A DNA stretch of 63,666 nucleotides, counting the filler, from Stramenopiles sp. TOSAG23-2 (Eukaryota): NCBI GenBank assembly GCA_900128395.1. It is 7 parts of 7 records of this genome, joined end to end, with 100 filler letters (N's around TTAATTAATTAA, not from the genome) between each part and the next. Parts side by side here need not be neighbours in the genome. Positions count along the whole stretch, not along the records: positions 27,674 to 55,239 come from LT649414.1; 6 more parts are not named here. One strand, written 5' to 3'. The translations under genes and the position numbers were made by a program. Position 1 is the stretch's first letter, and each line of letters begins with the position of its first letter. Positions 48,486 through 52,390 of the stretch are shown one piece after another. The notes under the pieces were generated by a model. It was not told the DNA's origin, did no database searches, and saw nothing but the letters and a program-made list of their open reading frames with translations.

Positions 48486-49421
48486 ATGAAACAACATTCA
48501 TATGGAACTGGGACTTTTCAACAACCACATAGAAAATTAGCAAATAATAATAATTCTAGGAAAGTTAGTAATAATAATGGTGCATCTTTAGCTGCACAGT
48601 CATTAATGCATCAAACGGATGCAAGTGGCAGACAACAACGTGCAATACCAATGCAACGCAACTCTGTACAAAATACACAGAAGAGAAAGCGTAGCAATAG
48701 TATTTTTTCCGCTATTTGTTGTTGTTTTAGCGCGTCAAATGTAAATGATATTAATCGAGGACAAGGTAGTCCATATCAAGGTTCAGGTGGTGCATATAAT
48801 TTACTTGGTGAAATATCACCAGCAAATTCTGGCAAGCAATGTATCGTGCTTGATCTTGATGAGACTCTTGTTCATAGTTCTTTTAAACCAGTTCCAAACC
48901 CGGATTGTATCATACCAGTTGAAATAGAAAGTATTGTCCATCATGTATATGTTAGGAAACGACCTGGGGTGGACCAGTTTTTAAAGCGATGTGGCGAACT
49001 CTTTGAAATAGTCGTATATACTGCTAGTTTAAGTAAATATGCAGATCCATTGTTGGATAAATTAGATATACATAAAGTTATTGATCATCGACTTTTTCGG
49101 CAACATTGCGTTTTTCATAATGGGCATTATGTGAAAGATTTGTCCATACTAGGTAGGGAGTTAGAACGAACATTTATATTAGATAATTCACCAATGTCAT
49201 ATTTATTTCAACCAGATAATGCAGTTGCTGTAACCAGTTTTATAGATTCCATGGAAGATCGAGAGCTTCCAAATATGTTACCATTTCTTGAAAAATTAGT
49301 TAATGTACGTGATGTTACAAAATATTGCCCGGAATACGATCCAACCGATTGTAACGAATGGGCTAGGCGTGGTATATTCAACGGTGAAGAAAGAAAATCA
49401 AGCCCTGCTTTTAAATTGTAA
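48486..49421 (+). CDS. CTD small phosphatase (SCP/Psr1-like, FCP1/NIF HAD domain)
   Basis: [43 protein letters not shown] motif suggests palmitoylation. Confidence 0.94.
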
Positions 49422-49993: not shown

Positions 49994-51310
49994 ATGGAAT
50001 TTTCAAAAGATAATAATGATAATGAAGCAAGGTCAACTACCTCGGAATATGATAATAGTAATAGTACAAAAGTACAAAAAGTGAAAAAAAGAAGTTTGTA
50101 TAATTTTTCAAAAGTATCATCTCGTGATAATATTGTATATGCAGCATGTCGACCAGGTCATACACATCCACGAGAAGGATTGCTTGTAACACCACGTGGT
50201 CAACCGACTACTACAGAAGCAGTGAAGGAATGGGTGGAACATATGAAATCACATCAAATTAAACGTGTATTATGTTTATTGACACGTTCAGAATTGACAT
50301 TTTATTCAAAATCATTATTATCATCTTATCGAAAATTATTTAATAATGATAATTGTGTAGAAACAGTTGCAGATATTTATTCGAAAGATGCCAGAAAACG
50401 TATATTAGATGCATTGCTTGAAGCAGAAAAAGCTGGTGAACGTATTGTTATACATTGTAGTGCTGGACAAAGTCGAACAGGTGCCTGTTGTGCTTTATGG
50501 CTTCATCATCGCTATAAATTAGCAGTCGATGTTGCTATCAATGAAATCAATTCATATGCATCTGAATCCAATGTATTTCGACAAGCCTCGGAAGATTCAT
50601 TATTAAAAATGTTAGTATTAGAAACTCCAAGAGTTAGTAGTGCTGGAAGCAAAAGTGGTAATAATAATAATAGTAATAAAAATGATAATTCAACAAGTAA
50701 TATTCGTAAAGGTTTGGGTGAACCGAAATCAGCAATCGCACCGCATACACCACGTTATAATATTGATACACCACGTTCCTCGAGACCATTGCCAAAAACT
50801 ATTATTGCATTTGTACAAATGGGTGGTACGATTGATAAAGATTATCCAAAAAGTACTAATGGATATGCATTTGAAATTGGTGAAAGTGCATCAAAACAAT
50901 TATTACAAACGATTGCACATGTACCATTAAATATTAAAAGTGAATTTTATGAATGTTGTAAAAAAGACTCTACAGAAATTACGAAAGATGATTTATCATT
51001 ATTATCAAAATTATTGGGAAAGATTAATTCAAGAAAAATCATTATAACACATGGATCCGATACAATTATTAGTACGGCATCGTATTTAGGTAAAATATCA
51101 TCATTAGCAAAGGAAAAAGTGATTGTATTGACATGTTCAATGCGTCCATATAAATTTACTAATTCAGATGCTGGATTTAATATTGGTACAGCAGTTGGTG
51201 CAGTGAATTGTTTAACTCCAGGTGTATATATAGCAATGGGTGGATGTATTTTTTCACATGATCGTTGTGTTCGAGATGTGCGTAGTGGTGCATTTTATGC
51301 GGTGCCGTGA
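49994..51310 (+). CDS. Fusion: Cx5R (PTP/dual-specificity) phosphatase + short-type L-asparaginase-like domain
   Basis: IHCSAGQSRTG active-site loop; C-terminal GGTIDKDY, KDS, THGSDT, SDAGFNIG and PGVYIAM. Confidence 0.85.
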   Translation: MEFSKDNNDNEARSTTSEYDNSNSTKVQKVKKRSLYNFSKVSSRDNIVYAACRPGHTHPREGLLVTPRGQPTTTEAVKEWVEHMKSHQIKRVLCLLTRSELTFYSKSLLSSYRKLFNNDNCVETVADIYSKDARKRILDALLEAEKAGERIVIHCSAGQSRTGACCALWLHHRYKLAVDVAINEINSYASESNVFRQASEDSLLKMLVLETPRVSSAGSKSGNNNNSNKNDNSTSNIRKGLGEPKSAIAPHTPRYNIDTPRSSRPLPKTIIAFVQMGGTIDKDYPKSTNGYAFEIGESASKQLLQTIAHVPLNIKSEFYECCKKDSTEITKDDLSLLSKLLGKINSRKIIITHGSDTIISTASYLGKISSLAKEKVIVLTCSMRPYKFTNSDAGFNIGTAVGAVNCLTPGVYIAMGGCIFSHDRCVRDVRSGAFYAVP

Positions 51311-51410: not shown

Positions 51411-51441
51411 GTCAGACTCTTTCTTCCGGAAAGAGTCTGAC
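51411..51441. other. Perfect 13-bp-stem hairpin about 100 bp downstream of a stop codon
   Basis: GTCAGACTCTTTC-ttccg-GAAAGAGTCTGAC. Confidence 0.85.
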
Positions 51442-51772
51442 GACGCAGACTAATATAAATCTAAATTTTAAATTTAAACCAAAAAAAAAAAATTAAGGTG
51501 GTTTTTCTACTTTTCTCCTATCAAATTACCATATAATATCAGGTACCTGGTAATATTAGATAATTTCATATTTATTACATGCAAACCAGCAAACAAATAT
51601 ACAATATAAAGATATGTCCAAGAGTAATAAATTGCCTAAGTCCTCGTAGTGGAGAGAGTAAAAGTAAATCATATACTAAATAAAGAAATTATAATAATTT
51701 ATTTATATAGAGAGAACACAGATATAATATATATTATTCCAATAATTCTGTTTCAAAAAGATAACTAGAAAG

Positions 51773-52390
51773 ATGAGTGATAGTGAAAATGATGATGAGG
51801 AAACAGATTTTTATGCAAATATGATTACATGCGAAGATTGTGAAGGAAATGAATTTATACCAGATGATGATGAATTAGCAGATGATGAAACAGAGTTAAC
51901 AAATGAAGAGAAAAAAATACGTGCATATAAAACAACATGTTCTGCAACATGCATTAGTTGTGGTGAAAGTGTTGAATATGATAATTTACCATGGGTAAAA
52001 ATGTATGCAAATTATTGTGTATGCTTAGTAATAGCAACAGAAACTGTGAAAGGAAAAAATAAGTTAAAACAATGTAAAGTTGATATTGGTTCAAACGACG
52101 ACGAGGAAGAACCAATAACAGTTATTACTAATGATAAAAATGTTCGTGAAGGTGATCGACTTGTAGTTGCTATGATTGGTGCTGTTGTACCAGCAGGTGG
52201 TGCAGAAGAAGAAGGTGAAAATGAAATGACAATACAAAAAACAAATGTTGGTGGTGTTACATCACATGGTATGTTTTGTGATGAATCCATGTTACGTTGG
52301 GGTAATACTAAAAATAAAGCAATACGAATGCCAGAAAATATTGAATTAGGTAGTAGGCCAACTAGATTGCCACCAAATACAATAAAGTAA
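51773..52390 (+). CDS. tRNA-binding OB-fold protein (PheRS-beta B2/EMAPII-like) with N-terminal CxxC..CxxC zinc ribbon
   Basis: KLKQCKVDIG, ITVITNDKNV..G..VVA..GA, GGVTSHGMFC; CEDC and CISC in an acidic N-terminus. Confidence 0.8.
   Translation: MSDSENDDEETDFYANMITCEDCEGNEFIPDDDELADDETELTNEEKKIRAYKTTCSATCISCGESVEYDNLPWVKMYANYCVCLVIATETVKGKNKLKQCKVDIGSNDDEEEPITVITNDKNVREGDRLVVAMIGAVVPAGGAEEEGENEMTIQKTNVGGVTSHGMFCDESMLRWGNTKNKAIRMPENIELGSRPTRLPPNTIK

Follow-up and report, generated by a model that had tools for sequence, protein, structure and literature searches.

In the marine protist Stramenopiles sp. TOSAG23-2, a cysteine-based phosphatase is joined through a disordered linker to a short asparaginase of the type of RrA from Rhodospirillum rubrum, an undescribed architecture made from two known families. 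The stretch of DNA that we analysed, the window, is 63,666 nt long, and all coordinates refer to it as a whole; the fusion open reading frame (ORF) lies inside the part that comes from LT649414.1 (27,674 to 55,239). The fusion gene is genuine, expressed and single-exon, and its join is conserved in stramenopiles. As to what its product does, we lean slightly towards a tetramer-forming, probably bifunctional phosphatase-asparaginase. The features on which the argument is built are the following:

49994..51310, plus strand: the whole ORF, 438 codons plus a TGA stop, without intron
49994..50098, plus strand: N-terminal tail, residues 1-35, poorly conserved in the family alignment, with residues 1-24 predicted to be disordered
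50099..50623, plus strand: cysteine-based dual-specificity-type phosphatase domain, residues 36-210 (family hidden Markov model match, Pfam and fold)
50453..50479, plus strand: phosphatase P-loop H154-C155-S-A-G-Q-S-R161-T162, HCx5R[S/T] (read directly, as IHCSAGQSRT)
50624..50794, plus strand: disordered linker, residues 211-267 (predicted local distance difference test, pLDDT, below 50 for 211-256 and 258-262)
50624-50632, 50747-50755 and 50768-50776, plus strand: Thr-Pro-Arg (TPR) motifs of the linker, residues 211-213, 252-254 and 259-261 (read directly)
50795..51307, plus strand: short-chain (RrA-type, class 1 'type s') asparaginase domain, residues 268-438 (Pfam, match to RrA and fold)
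50828..50845, plus strand: T279-I-D-K282-D-Y284, equivalent to RrA Thr16 (the nucleophile), Lys19 and Tyr21 (alignment to RrA)
51056..51061, plus strand: Ser355-Asp356, equivalent to RrA Thr87-Asp88, with the Ser355 codon TCC at 51056-51058 (alignment to RrA)
51272..51274, plus strand: Arg427 (CGA), equivalent to RrA Lys158 (alignment to RrA)

The initial annotation had claimed that a phosphatase and an asparaginase are joined in one ORF, and this is what we find. The ORF listing gives 49994..51310 as a single unbroken frame of 438 aa, its start is backed by an MEFS/MEF N-terminus conserved in the alignment of relatives, and the motifs that had been quoted are all where they were said to be, including the Ser355 codon. 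An 863-nt metatranscriptome contig spans 50458-51320, from the Cys155 codon to past the stop, and thereby bridges the linker. The suspicion of a chimeric join found nothing to sustain it, since no joints or indels appeared in the four marine RNA-library runs compared with the ORF, whose contigs differ from the window at eight codons, seven of them synonymously. Cover by RNA-library contigs is empty at 50381-50451 in runs X1 and X4 and over parts of the gene in X9 and X10, holes that prove nothing.

The same layout recurs well beyond this locus. The 90%-identity cluster of the window protein has 32 members from several sources, and its full-length forms are each found on up to 28 contigs. Among 216 collected proteins, 66 match both of the domain profiles built here in the order phosphatase to asparaginase, and about twenty clusters at 50% identity are represented among them. 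MMETSP transcripts flagged 'type:complete' encode the identical layout (P0014 and P0056), the order is kept in proteins as far away as 33% identity, and the named holders of the fusion are all stramenopiles: the thraustochytrid Hondaea fermentalgiana and the oomycetes Thraustotheca clavata and Aphanomyces stellatus. A misassembled chimera, or a pair of neighbouring genes mistaken for one, is accordingly a very remote prospect: we found no evidence in its support beyond the fact that the RNA data are contigs rather than raw reads, and it would have to account for an ORF recovered on many independent contigs from several sources, for a linker bridged by an RNA-library contig, and for a domain order shared with three named genomes and with MMETSP transcripts.

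The eighth differing codon deserves a separate mention. At codon 200 (50591-50592) the window reads GA and two RNA-library contigs, from runs X1 and X4, read TC, which changes Glu200 to Ser; Ser200 is also found in the cluster representative P0001. From these sequences the E200S change, which falls in the final helix of the phosphatase, has the look of a variant within the population.

By its sequence and its modelled fold, the N-terminal half is an atypical dual-specificity phosphatase (DSP), and presumably an active one. Pfam Y_phosphatase3 matches with 25.8 bits, above its cut-off of 22.2, Tc-R-P and PTP-SAK stay below theirs, and the cysteine-phosphatase matches centre on residues 123-190; papers retrieved under Pfam's DSP-PTPase and 'Swiss Army Knife' family names were all irrelevant. 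Modelled alone, the domain reaches a pLDDT of 94.1 and a predicted template modelling score (pTM) of 0.89, and the model has the DSP fold, with VIA-align Z values of 16.4-15.0 to PTPMT1, Tk-PTP, SsoPTP, DUSP23, KAP, LSF2 and Cdc14 and Foldseek E values of about 1e-5 at a probability of 1.00. The substrates of these structural neighbours range over proteins, lipids, glucans and RNA; with the top matches tied and so diverse a choice, a substrate class cannot be transferred to the window protein.

Within the family, all 31 aligned fused relatives have C155, G158 and R161, Arg196 and Trp169 are invariant across the same rows, and the unusual P-loop glutamine (Gln159, CxxGQxRT) is near-invariant, with 29 of 31. 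Judging from this conservation, Arg196, Trp169 and Gln159 may define the substrate pocket. The general-acid Asp of the DSP class is expected some 30 residues upstream of the cysteine, and D127 and D132 stand in the right loop; they recur in only 11 (D127) and nine (D132) of the 31 rows, in a loop whose alignment is uncertain. Short stand-alone relatives of the phosphatase half amount to three matches only, which are probably contig-end fragments. Protein Atlas offers no more than a lead, a weak feature match (score 0.75) to a cluster of eukaryotic DSPs of 196 aa, together with a structural match of the other half to bacterial short asparaginases, and it gives no taxonomy for the fusion. Outside the window, one relative of the phosphatase half, P0080 (585 aa), has the domain three times in tandem, and each copy contains a CWAGxGRT loop.

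Between the two domains lies a linker whose length ranges from 16 to 91 residues among fused relatives. The three TPR motifs that had been read in it are confirmed at residues 211, 252 and 259, and a fourth TPR, at residue 66, lies outside. The stretch TPRSSRPLPK is conserved, as TPRS[SA]RPLPK in 11 of 31 relatives. Over the 31 linkers we counted 42 TPR against 1.5 expected, with none of 2000 shuffles as high, and at least one copy in 25 of the 31 linkers (14 of 18 among low-identity representatives), counts that are inflated by the kinship between the sequences. We infer from this excess that the linker TPR motifs could be conserved sites of proline-directed phosphorylation. In the full-length AlphaFold2 model, built from a 31-row alignment, both domains have pLDDT values mostly above 90, residues 1-24 fall below 50, and the pTM is 0.48; together with the low-confidence linker, this fits two beads on a string. 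The model holds the phosphatase and asparaginase domains in no fixed contact with each other, which is weak evidence.

The assignment of the C-terminal half to the short-chain, RrA-type asparaginases is borne out by its sequence and its fold. Pfam PF00710 (Asparaginase N-terminal) matches residues 271-425 with an E value of 1.4e-17 and 64.3 bits against a cut-off of 22.5, and the best solved relatives are the R. rubrum RrA chains (8uoo, ten entries), which the single sequence finds at E 4e-23 and the family profile at 2e-39. The model superimposes on RrA (8up3, 8uoo and related entries; Foldseek) with TM by target of 0.89-0.95, a root-mean-square deviation (rmsd) of 1.4-1.7 A over 167-171 columns, 33-35% identity and an E value of about 1e-16. 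The ORF contains the asparaginase motifs GGTIDKDY, KDS, HGSDT, SDAGFNIG, PGVYIAM and CVRD. In RrA, Thr16, Tyr21, Thr87, Asp88 and Lys158 are critical for catalysis and Lys19 is also important (PMC10949315). The pairings that had been proposed for two of these positions, Thr87 with Ser355 and Lys158 with arginine, agree with the printed alignment, in which a 13-residue tag offset was applied to the RrA numbering of the 185-residue chains. Asp325-Ser326 is also kept, giving a catalytic string of TKYDSSDR over eight positions, and Y284 and N289 are present as equivalents of RrA Tyr21 and Asn26.

Two of these eight positions, the serine of HGSDT and Arg427, had been taken as possible signs of an impaired domain that binds its ligand with little turnover. 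That part of the initial annotation is not supported by comparison with stand-alone proteins. Lys158 is 'only moderately' conserved in the short-chain family (PMC10949315), and among the 114 nearest stand-alone short asparaginases of 150-200 aa (from 120 listed) 103 have Arg in its column and 11 have Lys. At the Thr87 column there is Thr in 101 and Ser in 13, and five proteins combine Ser with Arg; in the loop, the nucleophile Thr is found in 107, and the Lys and the Tyr in all 114. A more distant set without the phosphatase (n=101) shows Arg in 60, Lys in 29 and another residue or a gap in 12 at the Lys158 column. Bacterial examples run from TKYDSTDR in Ignavibacteriae and Patescibacteria to TKYDSSDK in two Roseivirga species. 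In the sequences compared, arginine is the norm of the family at this position and RrA represents a minority type. Since serine and arginine both occur naturally in stand-alone members, neither marks the window protein as impaired, and since every other catalytic residue is kept, the domain looks like an active asparaginase and not like a crippled sensor. A T89S asparaginase variant was not found in our literature search; Ser355 keeps the hydroxyl. Taken as a whole, the fusion and the RrA type stood, and the crippled sensor is mostly unsupported for the window protein.

The third element of our proposal is the oligomer. RrA is a dimer of tight dimers in which Tyr21 and Asn26 act in trans (PMC10949315). 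When four copies of residues 263-438 were modelled together, ipSAE, a score of confidence in the interfaces, reached 0.90 against 0.00 for the best control, and the three runs agreed on at least 94% of contacts with a partner pLDDT of at least 89. The mark used is reached by 20 of 30 one-chain pairs and one of 23 single chains, and among eukaryotes by 17 of 29 pairs and none of 30 single chains, a calibration that holds roughly for a run with its own alignment and four copies. The predicted tight dimer is formed through residues 394-407, 414-419 and 431-438, and the predicted second interface through 279-293, the active-site loop, and 383-390, including residues 279, 282, 284, 286 and 290-293, in agreement with the arrangement of RrA.

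On the preferred reading, the C-terminal 171 residues would be an L-asparaginase with a complete site made of Thr279 (nucleophile), Lys282, Tyr284, Asp325-Ser326, Ser355-Asp356 and Arg427, most likely assembled as an RrA-like dimer of tight dimers in a presumably cytosolic protein. The Tyr284 loop of one protomer would reach the active site of another, so that asparaginase activity would depend on oligomerisation, and four phosphatase domains would hang from the assembly by flexible tethers, each about 55 residues long. The TPR sites of the tether would be phosphorylated, either to regulate the protein or to be handled by its own phosphatase.

The family as a whole is more varied than the window protein. 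TKYDS[ST]DR is found in P0001-P0020 (with F for Y in P0012), P0073, P0078 and P0088, which are the window clade and its nearest clades. Of the fused relatives, 32 have a nearly complete asparaginase domain; among these, 28 have Arg at the Lys158 column, and otherwise intact sites combine Ser with Arg in 12 and Thr with Arg in 10. Nine of the 32 (P0074-77, P0079, P0082, P0083, P0087 and P0090, including both oomycetes) have a degenerate asparaginase site next to an intact Cx5R, which implies that in parts of the family the C-terminal domain has a role beyond catalysis. The phosphatase is the constant part, and what the C-terminal domain contributes besides catalysis would most simply be self-association.

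Several points count against a bifunctional tetramer. On the phosphatase side, Pfam DSPc stops at 32.7 bits, 0.8 bit short of its cut-off (33.5), and no general-acid Asp is conserved family-wide. On the asparaginase side, the nine degenerate sequences indicate that asparaginase catalysis is not what maintains the fusion everywhere, and the K158M mutant of RrA is inactive (PMC10949315), so that the case for activity with Arg427 is the prevalence of arginine among relatives. The predicted tetramer may be a memory, on the part of the model, of the solved RrA tetramer. The fused asparaginase domains do not form one clade on the tree, where an approximately unbiased (AU) test fails to reject their monophyly (p 0.226). 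Finally, RNA libraries may contain DNA, and contigs, not being raw reads, give colinearity and not proof of one transcript.

One alternative holds that the asparaginase-like domain mainly dimerises or tetramerises the phosphatase, its asparaginase activity being incidental or in the course of being lost. None of the fused relatives examined, the nine with degenerate sites included, has a damaged Cx5R, and a strong homo-oligomer is predicted. What those nine rows keep best is the predicted tight-dimer interface (identity to the consensus 0.49, against 0.38 for the rest of the domain, 0.31 for the catalytic residues and 0.21 for the active-site-side interface). The interface motif SDAxFN, however, is general to asparaginases as a family, so its conservation is not specific evidence, and the window clade and its nearest clades keep all eight catalytic positions. 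Such retention would be difficult to account for if ligand chemistry were not under selection. We regard this mainly scaffolding role as rather unlikely.

A different role for the same domain was the one first put forward: it would bind Asn, Asp or Gln with poor turnover and gate the phosphatase allosterically, as an amino-acid or nitrogen sensor. Short-chain asparaginases have a millimolar affinity for L-Asn (PMC10949315), which would suit the sensing of a cytosolic pool; the same domain type is fused elsewhere to Myb, RRM, zf-BED, filamin and p25-alpha; and the Thr87 position is occupied by Ser more often in fused proteins (12/32) than in stand-alone ones (13/114). All this has to be set against a full catalytic set in which both 'altered' residues are natural states, and against a linker predicted to be disordered with no confident interdomain packing. 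The degenerate relatives, moreover, are also devoid of the substrate-binding Asp/Ser pair, and sensing of Asn by that route is impossible in them. Such gating thus strikes us as improbable.

The origin of the join is left undecided by the trees, which are built on a domain of 170 residues and poorly resolved: they are compatible with a single fusion or with several, and do not identify the donor of the asparaginase. The nearest stand-alone asparaginases, at about 50% identity, include bacterial ones (Ignavibacteriae, Patescibacteria and Roseivirga) and two eukaryotic ones, from Cymbomonas tetramitiformis and one MMETSP transcript. In a FastTree phylogeny of 158 asparaginase domains the 32 fused ones fall in several small pure clades with low support; the AU test mentioned above was made on a quick IQ-TREE tree of the 32 fused and 48 random non-fused domains, with P0218 and P0219 dropped as likely contig-end fragments of fused proteins.

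The phosphatase is one of many partners of this domain. In mostly eukaryote-looking proteins from outside the window we also found the RrA-type domain fused to filamin, RRM, Myb, zf-BED, p25-alpha, glutamate dehydrogenase and PhzF, more weakly to GOLD and to the C-terminal domain of GHMP kinases, and in addition to the C-terminal domain of bacterial RNA polymerase alpha; some proteins carry two tandem copies (these multi-fusion proteins are P0103, P0151, P0170, P0097, P0126, P0138, P0123, P0029, P0030, P0165, P0159 and P0119). From these sequences, the short RrA-type asparaginase looks like a promiscuous module. A bolder extension, which we consider doubtful, would make it a reusable, oligomerisation-driven regulatory module of protists, responsive to Asn or Asp and linking nitrogen state to signalling. 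Ligand-dependent assembly or loop closure would then change how the four tethered phosphatases meet their targets or the phosphorylated TPR sites.

The short-chain asparaginases were defined in 2024 as stand-alone proteins of 160-180 aa, from a survey restricted to bacterial genomes, and the words 'phosphatase', 'eukaryot' and 'fused' do not occur in the available portion of that paper (PMC10949315). An analysis published in IUCrJ in 2026 states that R. rubrum is the source of all ten short-chain structures, and neither 'phosphatase' nor 'fused' occurs in its accessible text (PMC12951835). The main text of an oomycete phosphatome paper, as far as it is available, contains 'asparaginase' 0 times, and its supplementary tables might list such proteins (PMC10925823). 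Our literature searches for the domain pair found no description of the architecture, in line with the early remark that it was undescribed, yet databases already contain such proteins, auto-named 'L-asparaginase'. The abbreviation 'scASNase' designates the short-chain asparaginases in the abstract of the RrA paper (PMC10949315) and the Saccharomyces enzyme in that of another (PMC5099943).

What the fusion adds to this picture is, in the first place, that eukaryotes also use the RrA-type domain as a component of conserved proteins with several domains. In permanent union with a cysteine phosphatase, it occurs widely among marine protists of stramenopile-like character, and oomycetes and thraustochytrids have it too; it offers a concrete link between the fold of an amino-acid-metabolising enzyme and phospho-signalling. 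The passage from intact to degenerate asparaginase sites provides a natural series in which catalysis, assembly and sensing can be weighed. The finding that Arg, and not Lys, is usual at the position of the 'catalytic lysine' bears on the mechanism proposed for the short-chain enzymes. Database names need correction as well, since fusion proteins are filed simply as 'L-asparaginase'.

The surroundings of the gene look eukaryotic. The ORF lies in a gene-dense, AT-rich stretch (GC 0.25-0.42 in 2-kb windows), and the host is most likely a stramenopile, an AT-rich marine protist. The two flanking genes, which imply no functional link to the fusion gene, are:

48486-49421, same strand as the fusion ORF: NIF/CTD-like phosphatase gene (E 1.7e-55)
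51773-52390, same strand as the fusion ORF: gene for a small protein with a tRNA-binding domain (domain match)

Further neighbours encode an alpha-galactosidase with a ricin domain, a DnaJ-TPR protein, a SHIPPO-repeat protein, succinyl-CoA ligase alpha and ChaC. About 100 bases 3' of the stop codon, at 51411-51441, there is an inverted repeat whose 13-bp arms (GTCAGACTCTTTC/GAAAGAGTCTGAC) pair perfectly around a loop of 5 nt; it is present once in the window. Short RNA-library contigs match this spot and then run into unrelated sequence, with loose ends at 51413-51452. Such behaviour would fit a dispersed element as well as a 3' hairpin that is shared.

Among known proteins, the closest in layout are those of the named stramenopiles, which share 33-40% identity with the window protein and for which no characterisation was found in the searchable literature. 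GBG32891.1 of Hondaea fermentalgiana, auto-named 'L-asparaginase', has the same domain order, the Cx5R and the site TKYDSTDR. OQS03250.1 of Thraustotheca clavata (P0079) and KAF0682750.1 of Aphanomyces stellatus (P0083) have the same order and Cx5R with the sites TRLEGLER and RA-DALE-. Despite this loss of catalytic residues, oomycete fusion proteins are publicly filed as 'L-asparaginase' or as hypothetical proteins.

Taken separately, each half resembles a known system and departs from it. The phosphatase shares the HCx5R(T) P-loop and the DSP fold with the atypical DSPs (DUSP23/VHZ, Tk-PTP, SsoPTP, PTPMT1, KAP/CDKN3 and Cdc14), to which it aligns over 139-162 residues with an rmsd of 2.6-3.3 A, all tied within about 1 Z unit; its sequence matches are weak (E 0.007-0.02), identity is only 15-23%, and none of the solved families stands out. 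Unlike them, it has a near-invariant P-loop Gln, no family-wide general-acid Asp and a fused asparaginase. The asparaginase, in turn, shares with RrA the fold, the length class (without the C-terminal domain), the GGTIDKDY loop, the KDS motif, the Asp that follows the second hydroxyl residue and, in the predicted tetramer, the use of the active-site loop in trans. It differs from RrA in Ser for Thr87, in Arg for Lys158, in the phosphatase and linker placed in front and in its eukaryotic host, and RrA itself is less close to it than are proteins of 162 aa from Ignavibacteriae, Patescibacteria and Roseivirga, at 46-50% identity. The RrA type as described is a stand-alone, cytoplasmic protein of bacteria, whereas the window protein carries the same domain in fused form and in a window of eukaryotic type.

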